Program-made: the position numbers and the translations under genes
Assembly (NCBI GenBank): GCA_965205015.1
Contig: OZ242029.1
Location: forward strand, 1,408,001-1,472,000
Source: Candidatus Poribacteria bacterium
GTDB taxonomy: Bacteria > Poribacteria > WGA-4E > WGA-3G
DNA: 64,000 nucleotides
Direction: 5' to 3'
The notes under the pieces: model-generated
What the model was told of the DNA's origin: nothing
The model's database searches: none
The model's input: the letters and a program-made list of their open reading frames with translations, nothing else
In this document: positions 2,440 through 19,256 of the stretch, in pieces
Position numbering within the stretch: position 1 is the first letter of the stretch
Layout: every line of letters begins with the position of its first letter

Positions 2440-2772
2440 TCATTCTTACCATTTTAACACGCCACTGTCTTTTAAACAAGGAAAAAAGAAAATGTTAGGG
2501 TCGGTATGTGCGCCTCTGATCGCTGCAGTTCGCATCACTCTTCATTGGGTTCCGCTATCTCAACAAAGGCGCACTGACTTGCGTAAGTCCTGTTCGATTG
2601 CGTAAATCCTATCTTAAAACCGAAATCGGCTACAGCAGTATTTCCGAATTGGAATTCGATTTTTTTCCATGTTGCACCTTTTCCGACTTTAAATTCGTCT
2701 TTAATAATAGAGCGCGTAAACCGTATTGCATGACTTAATGTTAAAAGACTTGCCATTAGATTCAGTCTTTCA

Positions 2773-5739
2773 GTGAATACAGCGAAACCTCACCTTTTCA
2801 TCAGGGGGAATCTCGTGGAAAGAGAAGACGATGTTCAACTGATTCAGAGAACCTTATCGGGGGACGATACAGCGTTTGGTATCTTGCTCCGAAGACACCA
2901 GAAAAGCGTCCACGCGCTCGTCTGGCGAAAGATCGGGGATTTTCACACCGCTGAAGATATTACCCAAGACACCTTCCTTCAGGCATACAAAAAACTCTCA
3001 ACGCTCAAGAATCACAATCAGTTTGCCGGATGGCTGTATGTCATCGCGGATCGGCTTTGCATTGATTGGAGCCGAAAGAGAAGACTCCTAACGCAATCGC
3101 TGGAGGGCACCCCTGTGGAAGAAATCGAGAGAGCCTCTTATACACATCACGCATCAGAACAGTGGCAGACAGAGGTTACTGAGCATCGCCAGGAACTCGT
3201 CAAAAAACTACTTGCCAAACTCCCAGAGAGTGAACGCACAGTGGTTACGCTCTATTACCTCGGCGAAATGACGACCAAAGAGATTGGGAAATTCCTGGGC
3301 GTGTCGGTGGATACCATTAAAAGTAGGCTTCGTCGGGGACGAAAGCGTTTGCAAGAGGATGAGGAACTGATGATCCAGGAAGTTTTCGGCGGCGTGCAAA
3401 TACCGGCGAGTTTGTATGAGAACGTCATGCGAGAAGTCTCTGAAATTAATCCCGCACCCTCTTCGGTTCCTAAACCCTTTCTCCCATGGATGGCTTTGGG
3501 GGCAGCTGCGGTTTTGATCGCTTTACTTATCGGCGCGAGTAGCCGATACCTCACCCGCTTCCAGAAGCCGTATAGTTTCGATGCGCGATCTGAACCCACG
3601 ATTGAAATTGTCGACACGTCTATCATCTTTGATATGGCAACGAAGCCCGCTGTGCGAAATCAAGCCGGACGCGTTACCACTTCCGACAAAAATAGCAGCG
3701 CTGGCACCCAAGTTTCTGATGTAACCGCAACATCTACTGCCCCAGAGAATTCCACCAAGTTCTCTACCGCACAGTGGTCCCAGGGAAATGGACCGCCAGG
3801 GGGTCCTGTCCGCAATATCTTCGCTACACCTGATGGAACCGTCTATGCTGTCATACAAACAGGGATATACAGATTAGCAGCGGATGCGCCTGCGTGGACA
3901 CGCGTTGACACGAGTGTTCCGATTGGCACGTTTTGGATGCCAATGGCAGCGCATGGCGGTACGCTTTATATTGTTTCTACTGATGAGATATTTGCTTCAG
4001 ACAACAGGGGGGAGATGTGGAGGACGCTCGGTCCCCGACCCGAGGGAGATGCCGTTGAACTCGTCATTACAGATGCCGAAGAAGCGTCCAGTTCACAAGT
4101 GCCTTTTACGATGTATCTCGCCCTGAGAGATAAAGGGATTTTCCGGTCTACAGATGGTGGGGCGCACTGGCGTCCTCTGAACGACGGATTGACAGCGGAA
4201 AAGATTTCCGCAGTAACTGCTATTGAAAAAACAGTGTTCGCGGGGACAGAGAATGGTCTCTACCGTCTCGATTCAGATGTTTGGAAAAAATTGCCATTGG
4301 ATACATCGGGCGCCGTCTGTTCTTTGGCAGTCTCTGGGACTGATCTTTATGTTGGGATAGGTTCTGAACTGTTGGTAAGGTTAACAGGAACGGAGTTACG
4401 GCAGGTACCACAAGAAGATAAGTTAAATTTTTTCAAAATATTCCATTCGACTGACCTCGGAGCGTCGTGGACTAAAATAAAGTTTCGAAGTGGACGTACC
4501 AAAACCACACTGGCAGGGATAACGGTTTTGGCAACAGGGAACACGCTCTTGGCATTGAGCTCCGCCCAATTTCGTTCAACAGATGGCGGACAAACGTGGA
4601 CGGAACTTGAAAGGGATCATAGTTTTGTGGGCAACAGTCGTCTTCCGGTTGTAATGGTCAACGAGAGGACGTATTACAAAGCGAATACAGCGGGCATTCA
4701 CCGCACGACGGATGGCGGGACATCGTGGCATATCTTTATGGACGGGGTGATCGGAACTCGTATCGTGGATCTCGTCGCGTTGGACAGTGGATTATACACC
4801 CATACCGGTTATGATGTTTATCAATCGACAGATGCGGGTGTGTCTTGGAAAAAACTGTGGAATCATGAGCGGGAAGCCGTGCTCAACATCCCCACGACCA
4901 GGATAATTTTCGCGCCAAAACTGATACCTGTTGGCGACATTCTTTATTTTCTTGCAGGTCCAGAAACCGGAGTGGACAATGTGGGTATTTTCCGTTTATC
5001 AACGGATACGGATATGCTCATTCCAGTTCGAGATGTCCCCATTTTTGATCGTAGAAAAATCGGCTATGAAAAATTTTATTATCAGTCAGAAGATCGAGAG
5101 TATATTCGTACATTTCGTCTGAGAACGGAGACTGCTGCTGCGAGTCGTGATACCTTTTATGTAGAATACGCAGGCGAGCTCTACAAATGGAAACTGGGGG
5201 ATCCAGAGTGGACAAGCACTGGGTTGGTAGACGATGGTTATCGATATGATGAGAAATCCGGAGAGGGATTCGAATTCGGAGAGGGATTCAGATTAGCGGT
5301 TCTCGGAGAGACCGTCTACGTGGGGAAGCGGGAGGGTAAACTGTTTCAGTCGCTTGATGCAGCGGAGAGTTGGAAAGACATTACATCAAGCTTGCCGCTC
5401 CATTTCGCTCGCTTCAAAGATATGGTCTTTGTCGGGGCAACCCTTTACGTCGCAACAGATAATGGCGTTATGGCTTCCAGAACCGCGGAACATTGGTACG
5501 TGCTCACCGATAGTGCCGGCACGCGTTCGATCATAAATAGGTTTGCTGTAGATGGCAGCACAGTTTATGGTATCGGTGATGCGGGTGTCTACCGCTTGGA
5601 TACCCATAATCGATGGAAGCAGGTTTCTACGGAAGTGCCGGATGGACTTATTTCTCCCGCTATCACTCACGATACGCTCTATGGTATCATCAAAGGGCAG
5701 GGAATATTTCACACGTCCCTGGTTTCCGAAGAACGGTAG
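2773..5739 (+). CDS. ECF sigma factor fused to a TM helix and an extracellular BNR/Asp-box beta-propeller (start may be GTG 2815)
   Basis: sigma2 (AEDITQDTFLQAY..FAGWLYVIA), sigma4 (LPESER..EIG..LGVSVDTIKSRLRRGR), hydrophobic helix, repeated STDGG..W Asp-boxes. Confidence 0.9.
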   Translation: MNTAKPHLFIRGNLVEREDDVQLIQRTLSGDDTAFGILLRRHQKSVHALVWRKIGDFHTAEDITQDTFLQAYKKLSTLKNHNQFAGWLYVIADRLCIDWSRKRRLLTQSLEGTPVEEIERASYTHHASEQWQTEVTEHRQELVKKLLAKLPESERTVVTLYYLGEMTTKEIGKFLGVSVDTIKSRLRRGRKRLQEDEELMIQEVFGGVQIPASLYENVMREVSEINPAPSSVPKPFLPWMALGAAAVLIALLIGASSRYLTRFQKPYSFDARSEPTIEIVDTSIIFDMATKPAVRNQAGRVTTSDKNSSAGTQVSDVTATSTAPENSTKFSTAQWSQGNGPPGGPVRNIFATPDGTVYAVIQTGIYRLAADAPAWTRVDTSVPIGTFWMPMAAHGGTLYIVSTDEIFASDNRGEMWRTLGPRPEGDAVELVITDAEEASSSQVPFTMYLALRDKGIFRSTDGGAHWRPLNDGLTAEKISAVTAIEKTVFAGTENGLYRLDSDVWKKLPLDTSGAVCSLAVSGTDLYVGIGSELLVRLTGTELRQVPQEDKLNFFKIFHSTDLGASWTKIKFRSGRTKTTLAGITVLATGNTLLALSSAQFRSTDGGQTWTELERDHSFVGNSRLPVVMVNERTYYKANTAGIHRTTDGGTSWHIFMDGVIGTRIVDLVALDSGLYTHTGYDVYQSTDAGVSWKKLWNHEREAVLNIPTTRIIFAPKLIPVGDILYFLAGPETGVDNVGIFRLSTDTDMLIPVRDVPIFDRRKIGYEKFYYQSEDREYIRTFRLRTETAAASRDTFYVEYAGELYKWKLGDPEWTSTGLVDDGYRYDEKSGEGFEFGEGFRLAVLGETVYVGKREGKLFQSLDAAESWKDITSSLPLHFARFKDMVFVGATLYVATDNGVMASRTAEHWYVLTDSAGTRSIINRFAVDGSTVYGIGDAGVYRLDTHNRWKQVSTEVPDGLISPAITHDTLYGIIKGQGIFHTSLVSEER

Positions 5740-5770
5740 ATAGATTTTTAGCCGAAGAAGGAGATAAAAA

Positions 5771-6652
5771 ATGATATACCGCCAACTCCTCGCATGTCTC
5801 TTACTTTTATTAATTCCGCTGAGTGCGAAAGCGTTTCCACCCGCTTCACCCGCAGGGGGAAACTATTTAGTCCTTGATGGGGATGACGACCACGCCGTTT
5901 TAGATTTTGAAACTTTCGGTAGACCTTTACCCAACGGCACGAAAGAGTTCACCGTCGAAGCATGGATATATCCCACCACACCGCCCGACAACGGGAAAAC
6001 GTTATTGACGATACTCCATCAACAGGTGCATATGCTCATCGTGAACGATGAGCTTCAACCGTGGCTAAATGAGGTGGCGAATCTGTTAAATATTGAGCCC
6101 CCGAAGGGGGACCTCATCTTGATAATGAATGCCTATATTGATGGAAAGTTCGGTCTGAGATTAGCTTTCCCGATCCCGCTTAAGCAGAACCAATGGCACC
6201 ATATCGCTTATCAGTCAAATGGGGATCAGACAACAATGATCGTCAATGATTTCGTAGCGATACGGCGACTCGCGGATCCTCTCGGACATGATAACGATCC
6301 TCGTGCTTTGCGTCCACTGGACTTCGTGCTTGGAGGGTTTGGAAAAATAATTGAGGTGCCTGGCGGTTCCAATTATGCTTCCTTTACTGGATATATTGAT
6401 GAGGTTCGCATCTCAACGGAGGCTCGTTACGATGTCGAGAAAAAGGATTTTATGCCAGACGGCAAATTCAAAAATGACGCAAAGACAGTTGCGTTGTGGC
6501 ATTTTGATGAGCCGAGCGGAACACAGGAATTCTCAGACGCATCGGGCAATGCATATCATCTGGAGGGTAAAAATGGCGCGAGGACCAGCATCCCACTTGC
6601 AGTCGAAGCAGGAGGAAAACTCACAACGACATGGGGACGGCTGAAGCAATGA
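5771..6652 (+). CDS. Secreted LamG/concanavalin-like protein with C-terminal TWxxLK tail
   Basis: Signal peptide; FTVEAWI, QWHHIA, FTGYIDEVRIS, LWHFDE; ends LAVEAGGKLTTTWGRLKQ. Confidence 0.9.
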   Translation: MIYRQLLACLLLLLIPLSAKAFPPASPAGGNYLVLDGDDDHAVLDFETFGRPLPNGTKEFTVEAWIYPTTPPDNGKTLLTILHQQVHMLIVNDELQPWLNEVANLLNIEPPKGDLILIMNAYIDGKFGLRLAFPIPLKQNQWHHIAYQSNGDQTTMIVNDFVAIRRLADPLGHDNDPRALRPLDFVLGGFGKIIEVPGGSNYASFTGYIDEVRISTEARYDVEKKDFMPDGKFKNDAKTVALWHFDEPSGTQEFSDASGNAYHLEGKNGARTSIPLAVEAGGKLTTTWGRLKQ

Positions 6653-7746
6653 AATCTCTAAAAAAACTTATCGTTACTGGCATTATTGTTCTCCTTTTCT
6701 TACTTATGCAAATAGAAACCTTTGCGGATCAGGGCTGGGACCTGAGAACCCAACTCTCCACGAAGAGAATAGTTTTCGCGACTGCTGTCGTGGGTAATAA
6801 GATTTATCTCATCGGTGGCACCCTCTTTGAAAACGTGAGGCGCGGTAAAGCCGTCCGGGGTCCCTATGGAATTTCAACTGTTGAGGTGTATGACACACAG
6901 AGCAACACGTGGCAGAGAGTTGCAGATATGCCAACGCCACGCCATGGTGCGAAAGCGGCGGTTGTTAACGGCATCATCTTTGTCTTCGGCGGGTCGAATG
7001 GGGAGGAAGCTCATGCACTTCGGAAATATCCAGTGAACGTAGAGGCATATAATCCTCGAACCGATACATGGATGCAGAAAAAGGACATGCCTGTTTCTCG
7101 TGTCGAGTTTGATATTGGTGTGGTGGATGGAAAAATCTATATCATTGGAGGTGCGACGCGCCTCGGTGGCGAACGAATGGGCCGTGTTGATGTTTATAAC
7201 CCTGCCACCGATACGTGGGTGAAGGGTCGAGAAATGCCGACCCCACGCGAGAATTTAGGTGTGGGAGTTGTCAACAACCGTATTTATGCCATCGGTGGAC
7301 GTGGATGGCCAAAAGTTCGCCTCGGTCCCCATCTTACGGTCATTGAGGAATATGATTCAAGAAGCCGCCACTGGCGGAAGAGGGGTGATATGTTAGACCC
7401 CAGAGATTGGTTCGCGACGGTTGTTGTTAGGAATTCCATCTATCTGATCGGGGGAGTCCTTTGGAAGGGAGCGGGATACGAGTATTTAGCGAGTGTGAAT
7501 GTGTATGATCCACGGAAAGATATATGGAGCGATCTTCCAGCACTGCCAATCCCCCTCCTGCCTCAGGGGGCAGAGGCGGTCGACGGAAGGATTTATGTTT
7601 TCGGGGGCTCGGGAGATGTTGGAAAAGGTGTGGAATTACTTCCAGACGTTGTGGTATATGATACCGGATTCCGTGCTGTTGAAGCAAACGGCAAACTGTC
7701 CACAAGTTGGGGTGAACTGAAAGCAGAACACCAAAACCAACCTTAA
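6649..7746 (+). CDS. Secreted Kelch-repeat protein with C-terminal SWxxLK tail
   Basis: ATG overlaps LamG stop (ATGA); six KIYxIGG...VYDP..W repeats; ends AVEANGKLSTSWGELK. Confidence 0.9.
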   Translation: MKSLKKLIVTGIIVLLFLLMQIETFADQGWDLRTQLSTKRIVFATAVVGNKIYLIGGTLFENVRRGKAVRGPYGISTVEVYDTQSNTWQRVADMPTPRHGAKAAVVNGIIFVFGGSNGEEAHALRKYPVNVEAYNPRTDTWMQKKDMPVSRVEFDIGVVDGKIYIIGGATRLGGERMGRVDVYNPATDTWVKGREMPTPRENLGVGVVNNRIYAIGGRGWPKVRLGPHLTVIEEYDSRSRHWRKRGDMLDPRDWFATVVVRNSIYLIGGVLWKGAGYEYLASVNVYDPRKDIWSDLPALPIPLLPQGAEAVDGRIYVFGGSGDVGKGVELLPDVVVYDTGFRAVEANGKLSTSWGELKAEHQNQP

Positions 7747-7826
7747 GGGGACAAACCTGACGCGCCATCCTACAAAAGATAAGATAACACACAGACTTGC
7801 CCATCCCTATAATACCGGGACTATCG

Positions 7827-8597
7827 TTAAACGTTTGAATGCGACTGACAGCCATCAACGTTCACACAGGCACCCGTCACAAGACTCGCGCGTTCCGATG
7901 CGAGAAAAACGACGACATTTGCGATTTCTTCGGGCTTCCCGAACCTCCCCAGCGGCATATCGCTTTTTACAAAGGCTGCCATCGCTTCGGGATCCGCTGC
8001 GATGCGACGCGCCCAGCCACCCCCCGGAAACAGGATCGAACCCGGGGCAACACTATTCACGCGGATATTGTCCGGTGCGAGCTCCCTTGCCAACGACTTT
8101 GTCATGCTGATCTCGGCGGCTTTTGAAGCGTTGTAAGTGATGTGCCCGCCGCCCTCTCTCCCATAGATCGAGGTGATCATCAGAATCACACCACTCCCTT
8201 GCTTTTTCATTTCAGGGATCGCGCGTTGATTCACCCGCGCCGCAGATACAAGATTCAGGTCGAGGATTTCGTGCCATTCGGTGTCCGAAATCTCTTCGAG
8301 AGGGGTCCACCGACTGCCACCGACGTTGTTCACAACGACATCAATTCCACCATACGTTTCCACGGTTTCTGCGATGAACGCATCGACCTGTTCGCCATCC
8401 GTAACATCTGTAAGTTTGGCGAAAACCTCCGCGCCTTTTGCCGACAATTCACCCTGCACGTTTTGGAGCGTCTCTTGGGTTCTGCCACAGATGCTCAACC
8501 GTACACCTTCTTCAGCAAAACCGTGCGCGATAGCACGTCCGATACCGCGACTCGCCCCCGTTACAACGACCACTTTGTTCTTGAGTCCTAAGTCCAT
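7827..8597 (-). CDS. SDR family oxidoreductase (copy 1)
   Basis: TGASRGIG, NNVG, YNASK; start MDLGLKNK with GGAGA RBS. Confidence 0.93.
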   Translation of the reverse strand: MDLGLKNKVVVVTGASRGIGRAIAHGFAEEGVRLSICGRTQETLQNVQGELSAKGAEVFAKLTDVTDGEQVDAFIAETVETYGGIDVVVNNVGGSRWTPLEEISDTEWHEILDLNLVSAARVNQRAIPEMKKQGSGVILMITSIYGREGGGHITYNASKAAEISMTKSLARELAPDNIRVNSVAPGSILFPGGGWARRIAADPEAMAAFVKSDMPLGRFGKPEEIANVVVFLASERASLVTGACVNVDGCQSHSNV

Positions 8598-8652
8598 TAG
8601 ATCTCCCATTCCCTTTTGGAGTATGGGCTTAAAAACAAGCCCTAACATTTCT
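7834..8652. repeat. 819-bp direct repeat, copy 1 (copy 2 at 22357-23175)
   Basis: Sequence and alternative-frame ORF translations match at offset 14523. Confidence 0.95.
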
Positions 8653-9132
8653 GTCACTTACCCCCATTTTTTTTCAAGGATAGATTGTAGTTGATGCCAT
8701 CAGGTTTGTATGCGAGAAAGTCAGTCAGTTTCCAAGGGTTTCCCAAGGCGGATCGCCCCTGGAATGTATCTGCGTGAAAAAGGAGATGAGAAAATGTTGG
8801 TTCCATAAGTCAGTGAGCACGCGTTTGATAATAGTAATAACAGAAAAACTTTTTCTGTTATTACTATTATATGCCTTCTGCCAGTGTGTAGAGGCGACCT
8901 TCTCATAACTGATAAACAGCAATCCATAAGCCAAGCAGGCACACAGCCAGAGAACATCCAGACGCGTTTGTGTCGGTTTTTTCAAGACGAGTTTGCCAAA
9001 TCCGAAGCACGACTTTATATCTCGGAACCCGTGTTCAATCTGCATGCGTCTTTTGTAGCAGTGATGTATCTGATGTCCACTGAGACGATTTGAGATAAGA
9101 TACATCGGGTCTTTGAAGGTCGCGTCTCTGAG
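8651..9132 (-). mobile_element. IS4-family remnant: 5'-truncated transposase (8725-~9132) plus probable end at 8651
   Basis: YKRRMQIEHGFRDIK is the IS4 YREK motif; CTGTCACTTA resembles IS50-type ends; no N-terminal part. Confidence 0.75.
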
Positions 9133-9271
9133 GATATAAGGAATGGAAGGATGGAAGATAGGAAGGATTAGGGCGCGATCCGAAGATCGCCTCTACAAGA
9201 GTATACAGTGAAGCAGAGATAGCTCCTAAGAAAGAATTGAAAAACTCCGATTTTTCTTGATGCGTGGGAAC

Positions 9272-9862
9272 TTACGCGAGCCAAGGGATGTCCTCGTTTT
9301 TCAGGTAAGGGTTGAGATGTTCTTGGAGTTGGAGTCGGGCGTTTCGGAGATGTGTTTTGACTGTGCCTTCAGAACGTTTCAATCGTTTTGCGATGGTTTT
9401 GATAGAGAGATCTTGGACATAGTATAAGAGAAACACCTCTTTGCGAGACTGGGTGAGGTATTCAAGGGCTTTGTGGAGTAGCTGTCGCAGCTCCTGCGTC
9501 TGGAGACGTTCAGACGGGTCGGGGTGCGTGTTGGTGATGCGGTGTTCGTCTACAGTGTGTAGGGGCTCAATGCTGTTTGCGACCTTTTGTTTTCGGAAGA
9601 AGTCAATACAGACGTTTTCAGCGATGCGATATATCCATGAAGAGAAAGCGGCATCGCCCCGGAAAGTGTTGATGCCTCGAAACGCCTTGAGCCATGTTTC
9701 TTGAGTCAAGTCTTTGGCGACTTCCAAATCTTTGACGCGTCTGTGGATGTGCGTATAGATTTTGGGATGGTATTTTCGCACCAGTGGGTTAAACGCTTTG
9801 GTGTCGCCCCGTCGTATGAGAGCGACCAATTTATGATCATTTGTATGTATTGTGTTGCTCAA
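9272..9862 (-). CDS. ECF RNA polymerase sigma factor
   Basis: AKDLTQETWLKAF, FSSWIYRIA, SEGTVKTHLRNAR; TTG start after AGGAG. Confidence 0.9.
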   Translation of the reverse strand: MSNTIHTNDHKLVALIRRGDTKAFNPLVRKYHPKIYTHIHRRVKDLEVAKDLTQETWLKAFRGINTFRGDAAFSSWIYRIAENVCIDFFRKQKVANSIEPLHTVDEHRITNTHPDPSERLQTQELRQLLHKALEYLTQSRKEVFLLYYVQDLSIKTIAKRLKRSEGTVKTHLRNARLQLQEHLNPYLKNEDIPWLA

Positions 9863-9998
9863 AGGATTCTCCTGATTTGCGAGCGTATTTATTCAATTGA
9901 TAACTTCCTTCTAAACACGCCGCGGAGTTTCACTAAATTCTGTGCGTCAATTCGGTGTTGGTCCCCCAAGGTTTCCTGCTCTTCAGATTCCCGCTATT

Positions 9999-11159
9999 CT
10001 ACGGACCTTTAGAGTTTTCATGACTTGGGATTCCAAGCATACTTAAAAAGAAAGCAGAGAAAACTGTCTGGGTCCCCAATACCATTAATAGTAGTGCGAA
10101 AAGTGCCGGTCTCGTCCTTTGCAGCTCACCAAAGCCACTTTTCACCCAACCATACGCAATCCAGCCATCAATTAGGAACCCCACAGCAAATACTATACAT
10201 CCGATAAGCAATCCTTTTTCAAGGGTAAAACTACGATATACAAATCGGGTGATCGGATCGTTGTCGGAGAAACCACGAGTGATGCCTAAAGTCCGAGCAG
10301 AGAGTCCTAATAAGAGTATTTGATAACCGAGCAAACACAGAAGACACGCCAAAACCATCACGTGGATATCGTAGGCGCGATTATCTATTTGCAGGGGACC
10401 AAGGAGTAGAACAACCGTCCCAGCGAACCCGAAAAGAAAAAGTATGATACCCGGGATAAGAAACAGATAAGCTGGCGACAGCATCAGCATAAAGCGCAAA
10501 TGCCGCCAACCGTCCCGAAAGGAATTAAGTTTGGATTCTCCTTTGCGAGGATAGTAGGTTATCGGCACCTCTGTAATTTTAAGGTCAGCTTTTGTGGCAT
10601 TGATAACCATTTCTGAGGCAAATTCCATCCCTGTGGTCTGGAGTTCCATTTGCTGATAAGCTTCGCGCGTGAAGGACCGCATCCCACAGTGTGCATCAGA
10701 GACCCCTGATCGAAACAGAAGGTTCAGGACTCCAGTCAGAGCGGGATTGCCGAGATATCGATGAAGCCTCGGCATTGCCCCAGGAAGGATTTCACCTTTT
10801 AGTCTATTTCCTATGACAAAATCACAGCCATCGCGTAAGGGTATAATGAACCTTTCCAAATCTGTGAAATCGTAGGTATCATCAGAATCGCCTATAACAA
10901 TGTATTGCCCTTCTGCGGCGGCAATTCCAGCAAGATAGGCAGCACCGTAACCACGCAAAGGTTGATGGACCACGCGTGCGCCGAGACGTTCGGCAATTGT
11001 GACTGAGTCATCAGTAGAACCGTTATCTGCGACAACGACCTCCCCCTGAATGCCAAGTGCTGCCAAAGTCTCTTGTGCTTTCTGAATGCAGGTACCAAGT
11101 GTATCTTCTTCATTGAGACAGGGCATAACAATAGAAACGAGAAGGTTTTTATTTTCCAT
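9999..11159 (-). CDS. GT2 polyprenyl-phosphate glycosyltransferase (DPM1-like) with C-terminal TM domain
   Basis: SIVMPCLNEE, VADNGSTD, GYGAA, GDSDDTY, SDAHCGMR, GESKLNSFRDGWRH. Confidence 0.92.
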   Translation of the reverse strand: MENKNLLVSIVMPCLNEEDTLGTCIQKAQETLAALGIQGEVVVADNGSTDDSVTIAERLGARVVHQPLRGYGAAYLAGIAAAEGQYIVIGDSDDTYDFTDLERFIIPLRDGCDFVIGNRLKGEILPGAMPRLHRYLGNPALTGVLNLLFRSGVSDAHCGMRSFTREAYQQMELQTTGMEFASEMVINATKADLKITEVPITYYPRKGESKLNSFRDGWRHLRFMLMLSPAYLFLIPGIILFLFGFAGTVVLLLGPLQIDNRAYDIHVMVLACLLCLLGYQILLLGLSARTLGITRGFSDNDPITRFVYRSFTLEKGLLIGCIVFAVGFLIDGWIAYGWVKSGFGELQRTRPALFALLLMVLGTQTVFSAFFLSMLGIPSHENSKGP

Positions 11160-11173
11160 TATTAGACAACTCT

Positions 11174-13825
11174 TTATATTGGCTTATATTGGATCTCCCA
11201 AATTTTTATTGGGACAGGTCCATAGATTTTTGGAGATTCATAGATTAACTTAAAATGATCACTGTGTTCTCCGAAAAATAACTTGAATGTCAAATATTCT
11301 CTTGCTTCGGGAGAAATATAGAGTGCCATTGGATCCGCAGATTCAAAAGGCACATCTCGAACGATTTCACTATGTTTCCAAACACATCCGTCAATTTCTG
11401 CCTCCGGGAAGTACCATTGTCTATCTGCTATAATTAGTCCTTTAACTGAAACCAACTTTTCGGAATTGCCATCACGAATTACGATGGAGGCGGGACTACT
11501 AACCGTAAAACTTCCACTTTCCCATTTAAAAGGAATGATTATCCGCTTCATCTTCTCCTGAAGATTTTCAGTGTTTATTTTAATTGACATAGGGTGATCG
11601 ACTAAGTATTCAAGTTTTTGATCCGATTTATCAGAAAGTTTAAGGGGCGTGATTTGATGAAATTGCTCAATATTTTCGCGGCGTTCCGTGGCTGCCAAAA
11701 CATGAAGGTTCAGTTGTGAAAGATCCATGGGATGTAAGAAAATATGAGTCGCTTTATGTTCCTTTAAAAACCGCAAAGCCCCATCCTCGCTTTTTCCACA
11801 AAACACCGCTTTGGACATCTCCCTAATTTTCTCTAAGTTCTGTTCTTCATCAACAATTGTTGTTCTTCTTCCTAATTCATTAATAAGACTTCCGAAGTTC
11901 CAATTCGCTGCGATTACGGCATGAGGAGGGATATTCGTTTTGAATCCATTGAGGGCATCACGCGTTCCACTATCTGGAATCGGTTGCGATCGTATCGCTG
12001 TTATAAAACTGGTTTGGGTGGGACCTAAGCGGTAAATTCCTGCGATGGCCAGCCATGTAAATAAACACACGCAAACAAAAACAGATGTCTTTTTGACACC
12101 ATCCTGTGCCTGTTTTCTATAGAAAAGGTCCTGAAGAATAAAGCCGAAGAATATTGCTGTCACGAACAGGGTAATTAGGAGTTGAGCGCGCTCAGGTAAA
12201 CTTACCGATAGATAAGAAAAAGAGAGCAGCGATAGCAGAAATGTAAGGATATCTTTACCGCAAATCAGTACTTGCCAGGCCAACAACACGCCTAAAAAAA
12301 CGAGTGGAAGCCAGTTATTTTTTGCTGAGGGCATATACTTTTTGAAAAGCCTATTCAACATATAGCCTGAAAGTATGGCAATCAAAGGTGCAAGAAAAAG
12401 ATGAAAACGCTGGGCGGAACACGCCAGCATATAACCCGGAATGAACCAAGCAGATATCAGGAGGGAATGATTTTCAGTTATGGTATCTGTAGCCGCTTGA
12501 TGTGTTGGCAAGCAACATTGGTAGAATGTATTGACAACAATCACGATCGCTGCAATGGCGAAAATAAGACTATCTGTGAGTGGGAAGGGTAACGTGAACA
12601 AAGGCACAAATCTGCTAACAGCAATACCTAAGACAGCTATCAATACCAATGTGCAATGAAGTAAAAAAGACTTTCGTTTTCTGGGTGGATGTATATAGGT
12701 GAAAAAACACAATCCCGGAATAGCGAAGAGCAGGAGTAGCCCATAATCCTCCCGCCACATGTCGAATGGTGTCGGATGAAGTTCAGATACAAATTCCATG
12801 ACCCCATTCTTACCGAAAGGGTAAAAGATCGCATCGATGAAGGTTGAAATCCAATTGAAACTTCGATGTGTAAGCGTTAAAAGGATACATCCGAGGAAAA
12901 GAAACAGAATATTTATCGCGAACCTTAAGGGAATTTTGCTAAGCAAGCCGGAACCAAATCGGTGGGAGGTTCGCGATTGTATCATGATGGAAATCGCAGC
13001 GATTACCCCGAACGCGATTGGAACCCCAATGGCGAGGAGAACATGGGGCGCGAAGAGCTGGGTCCTATATATCTTTGTGAGCCCGAGTAACCCTGCTAAA
13101 ATTGGACAGAGCCAGATGGTGTACTGTGCGAAGTCATATTTATCGTAACCTTCTCTGCAGAGACAGAGAAAATTAAAAAAGACAATAACTGTTATAGCGA
13201 AGCCAACACCTTTCCATATTAATCCGAGAATACTTATCGTGATTCCCGAGAGGAGTGTATAGACATAACGTTTCCACAACGGCTGCGTTCGGAAACTCGC
13301 TTCAGCATAGAGTGCAAGGGCTGCTAAAAATAAGAAAATGATTATGGCATCAGTGTCTACATACCCTGTAAAAGATATAAGTATCAGCTGAGGGATGGAA
13401 ACAAAGATAAGGGTAGCAAATAAAGCTGCGATTTTTCCGAAAAGTCTCTTTGTAAACGCATATAGGATCAAGGCCGCAAGGGAGATAAAGAAAATGGAAG
13501 AAAAGATAGCGAATGGATATAATGTCAAACTGGGGAAAAATTTATGCCCTGCTGCGAAACCGTTCGCTAATACATAAGGAAACAGGGGGGTCGTTTTGGC
13601 ATTCTCAATGCCAGCCGGCGAATTTCGCATCGTATCAATACGTGGTAACTCCCCGGATTCGACAATCTGGCGTGTCTGCCGGAAGTACCTGTATGAATCT
13701 GGACCGAACAAATATGGGGCTTCGAGTGCGTCCCGGTTTTGAACACGAATGAAAACACCAAAGGCGATTATCAACAAAAAAATGACTGTAGAAAAGAGAC
13801 GTTCAGTTTTACTTGACGATTGCAT
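11174..13825 (-). CDS. STT3/PglB/AglB-like oligosaccharyltransferase (GT-C)
   Basis: PDSYRYFR, GYVDTD (DxD), FVSE, ~13 TM segments, VIAANWNFGS at the WWDYG position; likely start MQSSS overlaps upstream stop. Confidence 0.85.
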   Translation of the reverse strand: MQSSSKTERLFSTVIFLLIIAFGVFIRVQNRDALEAPYLFGPDSYRYFRQTRQIVESGELPRIDTMRNSPAGIENAKTTPLFPYVLANGFAAGHKFFPSLTLYPFAIFSSIFFISLAALILYAFTKRLFGKIAALFATLIFVSIPQLILISFTGYVDTDAIIIFLFLAALALYAEASFRTQPLWKRYVYTLLSGITISILGLIWKGVGFAITVIVFFNFLCLCREGYDKYDFAQYTIWLCPILAGLLGLTKIYRTQLFAPHVLLAIGVPIAFGVIAAISIMIQSRTSHRFGSGLLSKIPLRFAINILFLFLGCILLTLTHRSFNWISTFIDAIFYPFGKNGVMEFVSELHPTPFDMWREDYGLLLLFAIPGLCFFTYIHPPRKRKSFLLHCTLVLIAVLGIAVSRFVPLFTLPFPLTDSLIFAIAAIVIVVNTFYQCCLPTHQAATDTITENHSLLISAWFIPGYMLACSAQRFHLFLAPLIAILSGYMLNRLFKKYMPSAKNNWLPLVFLGVLLAWQVLICGKDILTFLLSLLSFSYLSVSLPERAQLLITLFVTAIFFGFILQDLFYRKQAQDGVKKTSVFVCVCLFTWLAIAGIYRLGPTQTSFITAIRSQPIPDSGTRDALNGFKTNIPPHAVIAANWNFGSLINELGRRTTIVDEEQNLEKIREMSKAVFCGKSEDGALRFLKEHKATHIFLHPMDLSQLNLHVLAATERRENIEQFHQITPLKLSDKSDQKLEYLVDHPMSIKINTENLQEKMKRIIIPFKWESGSFTVSSPASIVIRDGNSEKLVSVKGLIIADRQWYFPEAEIDGCVWKHSEIVRDVPFESADPMALYISPEAREYLTFKLFFGEHSDHFKLIYESPKIYGPVPIKIWEIQYKPI

Positions 13826-15266
13826 AAAACGGGACTTCAAATAGGGATTGATTGATGTCATTGGTGTGGATTTTGATGAGTGCTTTCGACTTGCCAGTTT
13901 CGGATGTGGGAGCTGTGAAAGTCACCGATATTTCATACTCCCGCCCCGGTTTGATGACTTCAAAATCTGTCGTGATGGACGGGTGAGTGCTTTCGATTCG
14001 CAGGATTTTCAAATCTGGGGTGCCATTTTTTCGTAATCGCACGCTGCGACGAGCGACTTCACCTATTTTGACGAAACCCATGAAGAATTGCTCTGGAGCG
14101 AGGCGGATGGCACCGACAACCTTCCCCAGGACGAGAACTTCAACATGTGGGTATCGGTATCCTTCTGTCAGGAGTGTCAACTTTTCTTTCAACCCACCCA
14201 ACGGGAGTCCTGGCTTTATTGTGACAAAGATTTTTGCGACAAGTCCATCTTTGTAAATGTGCTGAATTTTTGTTTGGATGAATGGAGAACTCGACTGGAC
14301 GCGTTTCACTTTTAACCTGCCATCTCCTGGGTCGTAGATTTCAAGCGTTTTTTTGATGGACTTTTGATTGCTGATGTTTTTGAGATGCAGGTTATTTGGG
14401 ACAATCCGGGCCAACCCAGCGACGACACCGGTAAGCGTGAAATGAATCACAGGAGTTTGAGGATCGTTTATATGCACTTTGACGGTTGCGGTTTGTCTCC
14501 CACGACGGTATTGTGTATCAAATTTGGCTGCAATTTCAGCGGTTTGATTTGGTGCGATTGTTGTTTCAGACAGGAGGACTGCAGTGCAGGAGCAGGATGA
14601 CCCTACGTCAAGGATTTCAATAGGCTGCTTCCCTATGTTTTTGAGTTTAAATGTATGTGTGATTGTCTGCTGATGCTCTGCGAACCCGAAGTCATACAAG
14701 AGTTCTTCGGTCTGGACGTTAGGTTTTTCTGTCGTAGCGGTCTGTGAGGGTTTAGAAATGACGAGAACGGCACCCTTCCAGATTTTTGAAAACTCGTTCG
14801 GGCTGAGCAGGGGTGTGGTACCGTCAACTTCAATCAGTCGAAAATTATCCTTTATTACACCCTCGACAACCAGAAAATGGTTTCTTCCGTTTTTGGTTGT
14901 GTGTGCAATCGCAGGGGTGCCAAGTTTTTTAAGGTTTTGTAGGCTCATTTTCATGCCGACAGCTTTGAATCCAAGTTTGTGTGCGACATCCGCGAGTTCT
15001 TTCATGCTGGTGCCGGTGGTTCGGACTTCTCCCGAATCGTCTATAGCCCCTGCCAGTTGGACGATTGTCTCGGGATCCACTTTCTGTCCGAACATCTCAC
15101 AAATAATAGAGAGGCTCAAAGGACCGCACATCCGAGCATAGAATGTATCGTCGTATTCTTGTGCCGAAGTCATATCCGTCAGTGCAAGGGTCAACCCGAA
15201 AGAAATTATCCATGTCAAAAAAAGGTATCTCAACATATTCTTTTTGTTTCCTTTTGTTTGTTGCAT
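13809..15266 (-). CDS. Exported C39-like cysteine peptidase fused to DUF1573/Ig-like domains
   Basis: Signal peptide; MCGPLSL, GTSMKEL, NHFLVV, FSKIWKG; then YDFG..FKLKNIG..SSCSCT (DUF1573); no ABC/TM domain. Confidence 0.88.
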   Translation of the reverse strand: MQQTKGNKKNMLRYLFLTWIISFGLTLALTDMTSAQEYDDTFYARMCGPLSLSIICEMFGQKVDPETIVQLAGAIDDSGEVRTTGTSMKELADVAHKLGFKAVGMKMSLQNLKKLGTPAIAHTTKNGRNHFLVVEGVIKDNFRLIEVDGTTPLLSPNEFSKIWKGAVLVISKPSQTATTEKPNVQTEELLYDFGFAEHQQTITHTFKLKNIGKQPIEILDVGSSCSCTAVLLSETTIAPNQTAEIAAKFDTQYRRGRQTATVKVHINDPQTPVIHFTLTGVVAGLARIVPNNLHLKNISNQKSIKKTLEIYDPGDGRLKVKRVQSSSPFIQTKIQHIYKDGLVAKIFVTIKPGLPLGGLKEKLTLLTEGYRYPHVEVLVLGKVVGAIRLAPEQFFMGFVKIGEVARRSVRLRKNGTPDLKILRIESTHPSITTDFEVIKPGREYEISVTFTAPTSETGKSKALIKIHTNDINQSLFEVPFYAIVK

Positions 15267-15325: not shown

Positions 15326-16468
15326 TTATTGAGAGGGCTGTCTCAATTCGCGATAGGGCCGTAACTTGCCAACTCCGTAATCATAAACGGGTGTGTCTTT
15401 GGAAACAGCTAATTGGAATTGGTTAGAGACATCAATGTTGAGTTCAAACGAGACGGCTTGAAGTGTCGTCTTCATGATAAGGTCGCCCTTCTGTTGTTGG
15501 ACACCCGGTAACAAGGGGTGAGTGGTTTCCTCAATGTTTTCCAGGAACCATACTCCCGGTAGATATTCTCTATAGTGTACGTGGCGTTCCGTAATATAGT
15601 GCTCCCCCTTTTTGAAAGGGAGCGACTCGATTTCCTCTTGAGCCTCAACTATTTTTTGTAGTTTCACCAAGCGGAACCCCTTCTCTGCGGAGACCCAGAG
15701 TTTTAGACTTTTTACATGTGGATGCTTTATACGGACGAGGTATGTCTCTTCACCGTTGATCATTTCTGTTCGCAGAAGGTCGGTTTCATTATCTTCAAGG
15801 ACTTTCCAGAGGGGGGTCATGAGGTAGCTGTTTGGGGTTGCCGCTCCGTAGGTCATCCAGTATCTCGGATCTAAATGTGCGTGTATCACACATCCCGGGC
15901 GAACAGCATACTCAAGGGACGTTTCATAAAACGAGAAGTATTCTTCAGTGTAGTAAGTGTAGTAACTTTGCCCCGTTACATTATCAATTATTTTGGAATA
16001 GGTGTCGGCTTTGATGCGAAAATCGGCAGAGACATGGAAGCCAATTTCTTTATACTTCTGTCTGACGGGAGAAGGAAATTCTGGTTCCTCTTTGTTGAGA
16101 CGTTCGTAGTCGATGGGTGAAATATCTACTCTAAAGATCTCCGCCTTGCGTTCAGAGACCTCCCATTGTCTTTCGCCATCGTAAATCTCCGATAAGATAC
16201 TGCTTTTAGAAGAGTCGACTCTGACTTGTGCGTCTTCAAAGGTCGCGCCATCAAATGTGAAATCGTATTCGCGTTTCTCCTCTATCGTTCCCAGAGCGTG
16301 ATTATAGACAAATGTTCCCCTTCCAGAAGGTGCTGCTGCATCAAAATTCTTGATGCCTGCGATGAGAGTTTGTAAGTCAAGATTCGGTGCTGCCGCTGCA
16401 ACAGATATATGGAACGTTCCTATCAAGAACAGCAGCAAAAAACGTGAGATGAATAGTCTTTTTTTCAT
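15326..16468 (-). CDS. Exported hypothetical protein (possible LolA-like fold)
   Basis: Signal peptide ending AAA; ETYLVRI..LKLWVSAEKGFRLVK pattern. Confidence 0.7.
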   Translation of the reverse strand: MKKRLFISRFLLLFLIGTFHISVAAAAPNLDLQTLIAGIKNFDAAAPSGRGTFVYNHALGTIEEKREYDFTFDGATFEDAQVRVDSSKSSILSEIYDGERQWEVSERKAEIFRVDISPIDYERLNKEEPEFPSPVRQKYKEIGFHVSADFRIKADTYSKIIDNVTGQSYYTYYTEEYFSFYETSLEYAVRPGCVIHAHLDPRYWMTYGAATPNSYLMTPLWKVLEDNETDLLRTEMINGEETYLVRIKHPHVKSLKLWVSAEKGFRLVKLQKIVEAQEEIESLPFKKGEHYITERHVHYREYLPGVWFLENIEETTHPLLPGVQQQKGDLIMKTTLQAVSFELNIDVSNQFQLAVSKDTPVYDYGVGKLRPYRELRQPSQ

Positions 16469-16510: not shown

Positions 16511-17200
16511 TTACTCCACGGCTTTTTGGAAGCCCATGTGGTTTAGTCGTAAGAGTTCGTAAAATTCTCCGCCTGGCTGAAAGGGTGAAAAATCACCTTC
16601 GGAATAGGTAAGATAGTCATTCCCCAACTCAAAGATCGTCCTTCGAAGTTGAGCTGCTTCCTCGTCAAGTTTGTCTCTGAGAGGCGAAAGTTCTGGGGGT
16701 GCCCCATTAGATGGGGCGAGTTCTTCAACACGTTCCATCAGATCAAGGCGGTCTTGAAGAAGTTGTGGGAGTTCGATCCGGATTTCTGCAAGTCTCTCGG
16801 CAGCCAAGGCGGTTTCAGCATCGGCTTCAGCATCGGCTTCAGCATCGGCTTCTGTGTTTAGATGAGAGACCGTTGTGGGGTCTACATCTGTGGGTGGGAG
16901 CTCATCCTGCGTGAATGTGTCTGTGGTATCAGTTTCCGGGAACTGTGAAAAATCTCTACGTCCCCAATCGACGGGCGGGGCGGTTTCAGCGGACGCACTG
17001 TCGGACATTAAGGGGTCCGCTGGCTCCTTGGGTGTGCGGTGTTGCGGAAGTTCTACGGCTTTATACACCTTTATCACGGCTTGTGGTTGATTCGCTCGGT
17101 GAACCACAACGCCGAGGAATATCGCTGCACAAACGGTAAATATTGAGCATATCCAGAACCCCTTTGATTTTAGAAGTACCATAAAAACCTCTTTTTTCAA
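16511..17200 (-). CDS. N-terminally anchored hypothetical protein with acidic linker
   Basis: One TM helix, EADA x3 12-bp tandem repeat (~16813-16851), helical C-terminus. Confidence 0.75.
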   Translation of the reverse strand: MKKEVFMVLLKSKGFWICSIFTVCAAIFLGVVVHRANQPQAVIKVYKAVELPQHRTPKEPADPLMSDSASAETAPPVDWGRRDFSQFPETDTTDTFTQDELPPTDVDPTTVSHLNTEADAEADAEADAETALAAERLAEIRIELPQLLQDRLDLMERVEELAPSNGAPPELSPLRDKLDEEAAQLRRTIFELGNDYLTYSEGDFSPFQPGGEFYELLRLNHMGFQKAVE

Positions 17201-17217: not shown

Positions 17218-17253
17218 GATCCCCCTGATCAGAATTTTCTGGGCAGGGGGATC
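17218..17253 (-). terminator. Stem-loop downstream of the precursor gene
   Basis: gatccccctg ... cagggggatc 10-bp inverted repeat. Confidence 0.55.
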
Positions 17254-17361
17254 TAGATAGATTTAGAACCTTTTCTGAGCCGCTCAGGTCCGTTGTATTT
17301 CAATCTTTATCGGTACGAGCGTGCCTCTTTAAAAAGGTTGCGGATGGATACGCCGGAAGTA

Positions 17362-17745
17362 CTACTGGTGACTCACACAGTCCTCTAGCCAGTTATAAGT
17401 TGTGAAAACGTACGTCTCACAGTAGTTTTTATAGGAGGCAATCCGACACGATTTTTGTGCTTTTGGGCCCCCTCTCCTACTACAATTCCAGCCATTATAG
17501 TTCCGGCAATCTTTGTGCGAAATGCCGTAACTGGTTCTTCCATAGTAGTTTGAGGTATCACACTGGGTATCCGTGCAGCCGCTTTGACTTACACACTTCT
17601 GATCCGACCCCGTGCCTTGCAAGAGGGACATCTCGGTGTCCGAAAGTGCCAAAGGCACATCGGTATCATCGGAAATGGCGACATAAGCCAGCCCTGATAA
17701 AAGGAAGACGACAGCAAGATAGGAAAACCAAAATTTATGTTTCAT
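17362..17745 (-). CDS. Putative secreted Cys-rich precursor peptide (signal + GG-type leader + 8-Cys core)
   Basis: AAAGGAGAA RBS; signal peptide, LSDTEMSLLQG-TG leader, core with 8 Cys and N-C-S sequon. Confidence 0.8.
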   Translation of the reverse strand: MKHKFWFSYLAVVFLLSGLAYVAISDDTDVPLALSDTEMSLLQGTGSDQKCVSQSGCTDTQCDTSNYYGRTSYGISHKDCRNYNGWNCSRRGGPKAQKSCRIASYKNYCETYVFTTYNWLEDCVSHQ

Positions 17746-17828: not shown

Positions 17829-17858
17829 GTCAGGAAAAAACGTGGGTTTTTTCCTGAC
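17829..17858. promoter_or_regulatory. Perfect 13-bp stem-loop upstream of the precursor gene
   Basis: gtcaggaaaaaac-gtgg-gttttttcctgac. Confidence 0.55.
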
Positions 17859-18014: not shown

Positions 18015-19256
18015 TCATCTCTGCGAAACTTTAGACACCGCTAACACGCAGGCGTAGTCTTGCCCAATCGCTATGCTTATCGGACGGCTTGCCTGAAGAG
18101 GTGTGACAGATAAAAGTTCGGGGAATGCGCCTTTACGGCTTTTCTCTATACTTACAACGCTGAATATAGCAAAGACCCCCTTTGCGTGGACAACGGAGAG
18201 ACGCGCGTCCGAAATGTAAAAATCTGTGACAGGGCCCATGAATCGTTTTGCGTTGATATCTATTGTCTCACTTGAGGTATCTTCGGCGATTTGCTGCATC
18301 TCGCCGAACTCTCCTACGCGGTATGCAAGTGTCGACTTTCGGCGCGTGAGATGCTTTTCCTCTATTGTCGCCAGATGCTCCCGATACTCCCGATCCATGT
18401 TGTAGTCGCTCACGCTTATACTTATCTTGTGATCACCCCATCGGCATGCATCGTAAATCTGTATATCGGTTGCCGGGTCTTTCAGACGCTCCACTCCCAG
18501 AAACTCAGACGATGAGCGGACCTTTTCACCTTGACTGCTCTGGAGTTGTAAAAACCCGTTGCCAGACAGGAGCGGGATCGAGAGACCGCTCGGGTGCATG
18601 TTTGAAGTCGAGAGGGGAATCTGTTCTATCTCAGCACCGCCGACTTTCGGACACAGCAACCACCTGCGTTTCTCCAGTTTTACGGCTTTGATGAGTTGCG
18701 CTTGTCCGCGGGGCGCGTGAAAAATATACAGAGAGTCGTTCTCGCCGATAACATAGAGGTGCCCGTCATGAACATCAAGGTCTTTGATGGCATGTGGATA
18801 CGGTAACTGCGTGGTCGAGTGCAGCACGGGGGACGAGGGATGCGAGAAATCGACGAGATGAATCGTTTTTCTCGTTGCGACAACGAGATGGTTTCCAGAG
18901 GAAAGCACTTTGCCGAGTTCATCCGCAAACGCAAGAGTTGTCAAATAAACAGGACGCTGTGGGATAGAAAGATCTATAACATGCAAATGTCTTTCGGTCG
19001 TGAGATACGCGTGTTTTTCTACGAGGACAACGGTGTTGTCTGAATTGACCCGAAACGGTAGTCGGATAGAAGCAGCGAGTGTCGGATATTCTGGATCCTC
19101 TGTCTCTATCACTGTGAAGAGGGTCTCTTGTGGTTTTACGGAGGTAACCGTCATTCGGGATTGCCCATCCCCTATCATGCTGCACCCAAGGGGTACAAGT
19201 GTGAGGAACGTTAGACTCAAAAACATAAAAAATGTGGAGGCAAAGGCGTTTTTCAT
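18015..19256 (-). CDS. Lipoprotein with LVIVD-like repeats
   Basis: Lipobox PLGC; LHVIDLSIPQRP, IHLVDFSHPSSP. Confidence 0.75.
   Translation of the reverse strand: MKNAFASTFFMFLSLTFLTLVPLGCSMIGDGQSRMTVTSVKPQETLFTVIETEDPEYPTLAASIRLPFRVNSDNTVVLVEKHAYLTTERHLHVIDLSIPQRPVYLTTLAFADELGKVLSSGNHLVVATRKTIHLVDFSHPSSPVLHSTTQLPYPHAIKDLDVHDGHLYVIGENDSLYIFHAPRGQAQLIKAVKLEKRRWLLCPKVGGAEIEQIPLSTSNMHPSGLSIPLLSGNGFLQLQSSQGEKVRSSSEFLGVERLKDPATDIQIYDACRWGDHKISISVSDYNMDREYREHLATIEEKHLTRRKSTLAYRVGEFGEMQQIAEDTSSETIDINAKRFMGPVTDFYISDARLSVVHAKGVFAIFSVVSIEKSRKGAFPELLSVTPLQASRPISIAIGQDYACVLAVSKVSQR

Follow-up and report, generated by a model that had tools for sequence, protein, structure and literature searches.

A small Poribacteria protein family with an internal double-glycine-type leader and an eight-cysteine core, candidate substrate of an exported C39-DUF1573 peptidase

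We identified a small protein family in Poribacteria whose members combine an N-terminal export segment, an acidic segment terminating in a double-glycine-type motif and a variable core built around eight cysteines, and whose genes recur beside the gene of a C39 peptidase that is fused to DUF1573 domains and is itself predicted to be exported. The window, that is, the whole stretch of 64,000 nucleotides that was analysed, encodes one such precursor, with the following parts:

17362..17745, minus strand: precursor gene, 127 aa, with an ATG start and its stop codon at 17362-17364, supported by homologues and alignments
17671..17745, minus strand: residues 1-25, Sec signal peptide or signal anchor, in which a basic n-region (MKHK) precedes a hydrophobic helix of 18-20 residues that ends at A-I-S
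17611..17670, minus strand: residues 26-45, acidic double-glycine-type propeptide DDTDVPLALSDTEMSLLQGT, with a predicted C39 cut after G44-T45
17365..17610, minus strand: residues 46-127, variable core with eight conserved Cys, predicted to be all-beta
17479..17487, minus strand: N87-C88-S89 sequon, not conserved

The first-pass annotation had described this open reading frame as a tripartite precursor, and the sequence that it quoted is reproduced exactly at this position. Our data confirm that the observation is beyond chance and concerns a real small family, and they support the tripartite interpretation. We consider it fairly probable, judging from the anatomy of the protein and its genomic partners, that the product is a pre-pro-protein that is exported by the Sec system, loses its leader to the exported C39-DUF1573 enzyme and matures into a disulfide-bonded core. 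Along this route, residues 1-25 (MKHKFWFSYLAVVFLLSGLAYVAIS) would direct the precursor through the Sec system and signal peptidase I would probably cut after A23-I24-S25. The exported C39-DUF1573 cysteine peptidase would then recognise the propeptide and cleave it off after G44-T45, and the released 82-residue core would fold into a compact all-beta mini-protein with up to four disulfides.

The precursor has no family match above threshold in Pfam or NCBIfam. A word-indexed search retrieved 14 homologues of 122-133 aa (E<=2e-26, 46-89% identity), and a profile search of 1.84 billion proteins returned 40 representatives at E<=1e-3, with 19 at <=1e-10. All 40 are 73-159 aa long, and therefore the family has no fused forms among them. 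Three family loci lie in named genome records, all of them Poribacteria MAGs, and 25 precursor matches were found in 17 of 175 Poribacteria-phylum genomes, at one to four per genome. Precursor DNA is also present in sponge-metagenome runs; none of the runs found is RNA.

Close homologues hardly differ in residues 1-45, whereas their cores diverge around eight fixed cysteines. In pairwise comparisons of 57 members, identity averages 0.42 in residues 1-25, 0.43 in residues 26-45 and 0.20 in the core, and the last value drops to 0.12 when the Cys columns are left out, with the export segment and leader conserved about twice as much as the core. A conserved leader with a variable core among homologues had been named beforehand as the test of the first reading, and for the leader this is the pattern displayed by the 57 members. 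Where leader residues of the window are identical in homologous loci, different codons are used at 11 of 31 positions (versus L002) and at 13 of 32 (versus L003). Because synonymous differences are this common within the leader, its conservation reflects selection on the protein, and we rejected a nucleotide-level element or recent gene conversion as its source.

The acidic segment terminates in LSDTEMSLLQGT, which follows the double-glycine consensus L-S-x-x-E-L-x-x-I-x-G-[G/A/S] except for an atypical Thr at -1. Distant members of the family carry the canonical form L-S-D-x-E-M-x-x-L-x-G-[GAST] in their leaders (LALSDTEMETLFGG, LVLSDSQMEQLSGA, FALSETEMQHIQGG and LILSEEEMMKLGGG). From alignment to these textbook motifs we infer that G44-T45 of the window occupies the "GG" position, with the predicted cut at T45|G46. 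Of 50 members, 43 have G and seven have A at -2, and the -2 Gly is the best-kept position of the leader; the -1 position is T in 22, A in nine, S in nine, G in seven and M, V or N in one each, and within the window's clade it is mostly Thr. The median propeptide, measured from the putative signal-peptidase site to the GG site, is 20 residues long in these 50 members. Thr at -1 is unusual, known C39 substrates having G, A or S there, and so is the Ala at -2 in seven of the 50 members. The internal double-glycine-type leader that had been claimed from the window protein holds up in the family, being canonical in distant members and having G or A at -2 in all 50.

At E<=10, the window protein and two of the five distant members tested matched NCBIfam solely in GG-leader families, namely TIGR03893 (lichenicidin A2), TIGR04149, ComC, lactococcin G-beta, VP1 pheromone and TIGR01847; all were sub-threshold and located within residues 33-63. 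The remaining three distant members gave no NCBIfam match at E<=10. A strict regular expression for the leader produced 18 matches among 705 six-frame ORFs of at least 100 aa (175,119 residues, from the window and the fetched loci), all in small Cys-rich precursors. We also considered whether the leader is common to other proteins and found none in the five genomes searched: a leader-only profile retrieved just the eight known precursors, the next match having an E-value of 0.054. Since nothing but these eight precursors was retrieved in the five genomes, the precursor and the peptidase therefore appear to form a dedicated pair.

The precursor gene stands within a cluster on the same strand, of which the neighbouring genes are listed below:

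9999..11159, minus strand: GT2 glycosyltransferase, 386 aa, with C-terminal membrane segments (PF00535, 4.7e-27)
11174..13861, minus strand: STT3-like GT-C glycosyltransferase, 895 aa (Pfam STT3 N-terminal model, 2.1e-12)
13809..15266, minus strand: C39 peptidase fused to DUF1573 Ig-like domains, predicted to be exported, 485 aa, the proposed processing enzyme
15326..16468, minus strand: exported protein of no known family, 380 aa, kept between the precursor and C39 in most modules
16511..17200, minus strand: membrane-anchored acidic protein, 229 aa, found in a subset of modules
18015..19256, minus strand: exported protein, 413 aa, with a weak LVIVD repeat match, the upstream neighbour only in the window's own subgroup
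19253..20656, minus strand: UshA-like metallophosphoesterase with an EPCGC motif, fused to a cytochrome c554-like domain, 467 aa (NCBIfam NF041198, "UshA-like (seleno)protein", 298.9 bits against a cut-off of 275)

The C39-DUF1573 gene lies two genes downstream of the precursor, at a distance of 2.1 kb. Its 485-aa product matches Pfam PF03412 (Peptidase_C39) at 3.9e-22 and PF07610 (DUF1573) at 1.6e-29, and consists of a signal peptide, the C39 domain and DUF1573 only, without a fused ABC transporter; the match to NCBIfam ABC-transporter models is restricted to the peptidase part and falls far below the cut-off. The nearest solved structure for the C39 domain is the peptidase domain of PCAT1 (7n87/4ry2, E 4e-6), in which the catalytic Cys is aligned. 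Cys47, His130 and the C225-x-C227 pair within DUF1573 are invariant in all 17 orthologues and paralogues, and all 17 have an N-terminal hydrophobic signal a few residues ahead of the catalytic Cys. The earlier expectation that the partner C39 is exported agrees with the N-terminal signal peptide and with the retention of Cys47 and His130 throughout these 17 proteins. The signal segment, the intact Cys and His and the lack of an ABC transporter together argue for a C39-DUF1573 enzyme that is exported, catalytically intact and probably active.

A tblastn survey with eight window proteins over 20 loci revealed a recurring gene order: the UshA-like/cytochrome c protein, the precursor, the 380-aa exported protein and C39-DUF1573. 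In 10 of 18 modules the C39 gene is followed immediately by the STT3-like GT-C gene, together with a GT2 gene. The UshA-like gene heads the module, and genomes with two modules have two copies of it; homologues were found at L002, L003, L041-L051, L053, L062 and L070, and the EPCGC motif is present in all 20 UshA-like copies. A redox role of this protein toward the 8-Cys protein is conceivable. For the 380-aa protein, the ESM Atlas gave a lead to LolA-like TP_0789/MucB_RseB clusters, at a score of 0.88 only. The conserved module contains no ABC transporter. None of the eight cluster proteins has a Pfam match to FapF-type barrels or fibre subunits, although three of the eight belong to no family and a divergent barrel could be among them.

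The precursor and the peptidase are also linked across genomes. In the 175 genomes, a same-strand C39 match lies 1.1-2.2 kb downstream of 18 of the 25 precursor copies. The seven copies without an adjacent C39 comprise three on short contigs of the fragmented MAG G008 and four in genomes without a C39 match, namely the single-contig assemblies G001 and G034 and the MAGs G076 and G010, where C39 is to be read as "not found" rather than "absent". All four copies in the latter group are damaged. The G001 copy (L001 9997-10381 (+)) has a frameshift within its first ten codons, and at this locus the downstream module genes are missing while a 63-aa remnant of the UshA-like gene remains; the locus is probably decaying, a sequencing error being the alternative. 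The G034 copy has two stops, the G076 copy has a TAG and lacks the signal segment, and in G010 (L056 2184-3191 (+)) precursor residues 1-36, covering the signal segment and the first part of the leader, run in frame into a homologue of the 380-aa protein, with the Cys-rich core deleted. Among the 18 C39-linked precursor copies a stop codon occurs in one, and its C39 likewise has one. One of the G008 copies, at L039 (G008:C115), is an exception to strict adjacency, having the precursor, a homologue of the 380-aa protein and GT2 with no C39 between them; the contigs of the two other G008 copies are too short to judge.

We examined 13 further loci encoding C39-DUF1573 proteins of about 480 aa, all from genomes without a match to the window's precursor family. 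Nine of them (L059, L063-L066 and L068-L071) contain small Cys-rich ORFs of 129-166 aa in which a signal-like N-terminus is followed by a GG motif, and the cores of these proteins are unrelated. They have 6-14 Cys and a canonical ...M..I.GG/GA leader, adjoin the C39-DUF1573 genes, and include tandem precursors, two in L064 and three in L068; examples of their leader motifs are LNASQMQTMYGG, LDMEEMSQIAGG, LTPVQMSEIWGG and LSQAEMLATRGA. In the other four loci our own filter returned no candidate precursor. Given unrelated cores in nine of 13 loci, what travels with the C39-DUF1573 peptidase is therefore an architecture in which a signal and a GG leader precede a Cys-rich core.

How the precursor would be held or released at the membrane depends on the export segment, in which F5, W6 and Y21 are kept in at least 90% of the 57 members. 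AlphaFold2 (AF2) modelled residues 3-27 as one helix. A -3/-1 scan, in which the signal-peptidase site was placed by our own rule-based heuristic rather than by a trained predictor, found A at -3 in 32 of 50 members and A, S or G at -1 in all 50. The segment is long (18-20 residues) and unusually conserved at F5, W6 and Y21, and a retained anchor fits these features as well as a cleaved signal peptide does. It is thus possible, if rather unlikely, that the helix stays uncleaved and holds the precursor in the inner membrane until a single C39 cut after G44-T45 frees the core. Such an anchor would be consistent with the length of the hydrophobic stretch and the single modelled helix, with conservation that goes far beyond that of ordinary signal peptides (the three residues above and the identity of 0.42), and with a GG site at a constant distance of about 20 residues from the membrane. 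However, most members retain an A-x-[A/S/G] site where the helix ends, and the unrelated precursors at other C39-DUF1573 genes have ordinary-looking signal peptides that lack the KFW..Y pattern. Both observations favour the two-step route, with signal peptidase I acting in addition to C39.

The leader might also remain on the mature protein as a docking or chaperone-binding segment, recognised by the 380-aa protein or by C39 acting as a binding module. Protease-inactive, substrate-binding C39-like domains exist in HlyB-type transporters, which we counted in favour of such a role. The FapD paper likewise mentions this subgroup (PMC5557850). However, the Cys47 and His130 of the Poribacteria enzymes are invariant in 17 of 17 proteins, the -2 Gly at the predicted cut is the residue that the leader keeps best, and in the AF2 model the leader is disordered save for a short helix at residues 36-42 and is not packed on the core. 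An uncut leader therefore seems quite improbable to us. Still harder to credit is the classical route, in which residues 1-45 would be a cytoplasmic double-glycine leader cut and exported by a C39-bearing ABC transporter encoded elsewhere, with C39-DUF1573 serving another substrate. These genomes do contain open reading frames of about 800 aa that match C39 and could be such transporters. However, the conserved module has none, the N-terminus of the precursor is a basic n-region followed by a hydrophobic helix, and the precursor is linked to the exported C39 by co-location as well as by co-loss.

Under the preferred pre-pro-protein reading, the mature product would be the 82-aa core, with Cys at positions 51, 57, 62, 80, 88, 100, 109 and 123 and a composition in which S (10), C (8), Y (8), G (7), T (7) and N (6) are prominent. 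The eight cysteines that had been reported for the window protein are present, and their columns are invariant or at least 90% kept in the 57 aligned members. A first AF2 model from 15 sequences was poor (pLDDT 61.7); with 57 sequences the mean pLDDT rose to 82, and the core (residues 51-127) was modelled as all-beta with values of 84-96 per ten-residue block. Foldseek searches of the PDB with both AF2 models gave no match at E<=0.001, and the ESM Atlas gave no usable match for the precursor. In an all-against-representatives structural search the best match was 8enb (Z 3.5, 62 residues aligned, rmsd 3.5), followed by 5fv1 (Z 2.9), 3mjk (Z 2.8) and 2x1w (Z 2.6), scores that all fall short of Z 7-8, the level usually reached by chance. 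The recurrence of cystine-knot growth factors in these weak matches is only a lead. A fast-evolving core on a fixed Cys scaffold suggests that the mature product may be a binding or antagonistic extracytoplasmic protein.

The core of the window protein contains a single N-x-S sequon, N87-C88-S89, in the context GWNCS. The first-pass annotation had pointed to it, and while the sequon is indeed there, it carries little weight, being lost in the 79%-identical homologue P0002 (GWSCS). At least one sequon occurs in 36 of 47 cores and none in the other 11. The total of 57 sequons compares with 45.2 +- 5.9 after shuffling and was reached in 51 of 2000 shuffles, a marginal enrichment in which the relatedness of the sequences is ignored. 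Under the PglB rule, the sequon takes the form D/E-x-N-x-S/T; G-W-N-C-S has no acidic residue at -2 and falls outside it. Moreover, only the N-terminal GT-C part of the STT3-like protein matches the Pfam STT3 model, and a weak alignment (E 0.026) places NWNFG where STT3A has WWDYG. Because the sequon is not conserved, its enrichment is marginal and the STT3-like match is partial, N-glycosylation of the precursor is possible but unsupported. The pairing of the STT3-like GT-C protein with GT2 may indicate a lipid-monophosphate sugar donor rather than a classical oligosaccharyltransferase.

In textbook accounts, C39 peptidases are cytoplasmic components of bacteriocin exporters. The PCAT/AMS ABC exporters (PCAT1, ComA, LahT and CvaB) share with the Poribacteria system a leader of about 20 acidic residues with the consensus L-S-x-x-E-[L/M]-x-x-[I/L]-x-G-x, and the Poribacteria C39 domain is closest to that of PCAT1 and retains its catalytic Cys and His. 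However, PCAT/AMS leaders form the extreme N-terminus and have no Sec signal, whereas the Poribacteria leader starts at residue 26 behind the export segment. Likewise, the PCAT/AMS C39 is fused to an ABC transporter, whereas the Poribacteria C39 has its own signal peptide and DUF1573. The substrates also differ, since the -1 residue is mostly Thr in the window's clade and the cargo is an 82-aa protein with eight Cys.

Stand-alone periplasmic C39 peptidases provide a closer comparison. FapD of the Pseudomonas Fap amyloid system is a periplasmic stand-alone C39 with a Sec signal whose catalytic Cys is needed (Rouse et al. 2017, PMC5557850). That paper describes FapD as a requirement for Fap secretion whose target "remains unclear" and whose class was "yet to be characterised" (PMC5557850). 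The Poribacteria C39 is similarly stand-alone with its own Sec-type signal (17 of 17). It differs in that the substrate and recognition sequence of FapD are stated to be unclear, whereas in the Poribacteria locus a candidate substrate is evident and its motif is canonical. Neither amyloid subunits nor a FapF-like barrel were recognised in the Poribacteria locus. Equivalog-level matches are absent, the scores being 34.4 bits for NF058616 (C39_FapD; cut-off 330) and 16.9 bits for NF050078 (FilB; cut-off 475).

In the nap island of Neisseria, which encodes the C39 protein NapP and the channel NapF, periplasmic cleavage of Nap pre-peptides with a GG motif has been modelled (Poncin et al. 2025, PMC11798529). 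Both systems pair GG-motif precursors with a stand-alone periplasmic C39, and in both the cleavage is only modelled. Unlike the Poribacteria system, the Nap system involves small cationic microcin-like peptides and a FapF-type channel, and it has no DUF1573, Cys-rich fold or glycosyltransferase genes. The Poribacteria system is a variation on FapD/NapP-type periplasmic C39 systems. Our literature searches on Poribacteria, C39 peptidases and DUF1573 turned up no account of a C39-DUF1573 protein, nor of a Poribacteria system of this kind.

Periplasmic stand-alone C39s such as FapD and NapP are known, but their substrates and recognition rules are still open (PMC5557850, PMC11798529). The Poribacteria locus pairs one candidate enzyme with one candidate substrate, in which the motif is canonical and the cut is predicted at T45|G46, and the pairing recurs with several unrelated Cys-rich cargoes inside one phylum. 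The precursors form a new family of small secreted proteins from uncultivated sponge symbionts, predicted to be disulfide-rich and without a known fold match. As read from the genes, the pair points to a little-known maturation route for proteins outside the cytoplasm. A broader picture, which is speculative and which we hold to be unlikely, is that Poribacteria possess an undescribed, ABC-independent route for the periplasmic maturation of ribosomal mini-proteins. In it, the precursor would be delivered by a Sec signal and stripped of its double-glycine leader by the C39 protease, with its Ig-like DUF1573 domains and their invariant CxC motif, after which the CGC-motif/multihaem partner and the GT-C/GT2 pair would oxidise and glycosylate the core. 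Hypervariable, disulfide-knotted, possibly growth-factor-like extracellular products would then be directed by the sponge symbionts toward the host or competitors.

Several further features of these loci were observed. At L041 (G058), positions 1991-12812 hold three full and one partial C39-DUF1573 genes within 11 kb, beside two precursors and an 80-residue STT3-like fragment; the module is locally amplified and rearranged there. At L003 13972-16766 (+), the STT3-like gene is split into ORFs of 140 and 666 aa that a tblastn match covers in two pieces, a split due either to a frameshift or to faulty assembly. Against the "OS_HP2 family (seleno)protein" model, the DUF1573 region of the C39 protein reaches 83.2 bits (cut-off 100), and two more distant DUF1573 paralogues in G002 and G003 (L012 and L013) contain one in-frame TGA each and could be selenoproteins. 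Finally, the precursor gene is flanked by two strong stem-loops:

17219..17254, minus strand: stable stem-loop just 3' of the precursor stop codon (-46.4 kcal/mol over a 140-nt stretch, z -5.58, equalled by 0 of 200 shuffles)
17829..17858, minus strand: stem-loop of 13 bp in the gap that separates the precursor from the upstream gene (z -5.19 versus shuffles)

Lying on both sides of the gene, these structures could give the precursor transcript a stability of its own or act in attenuation.
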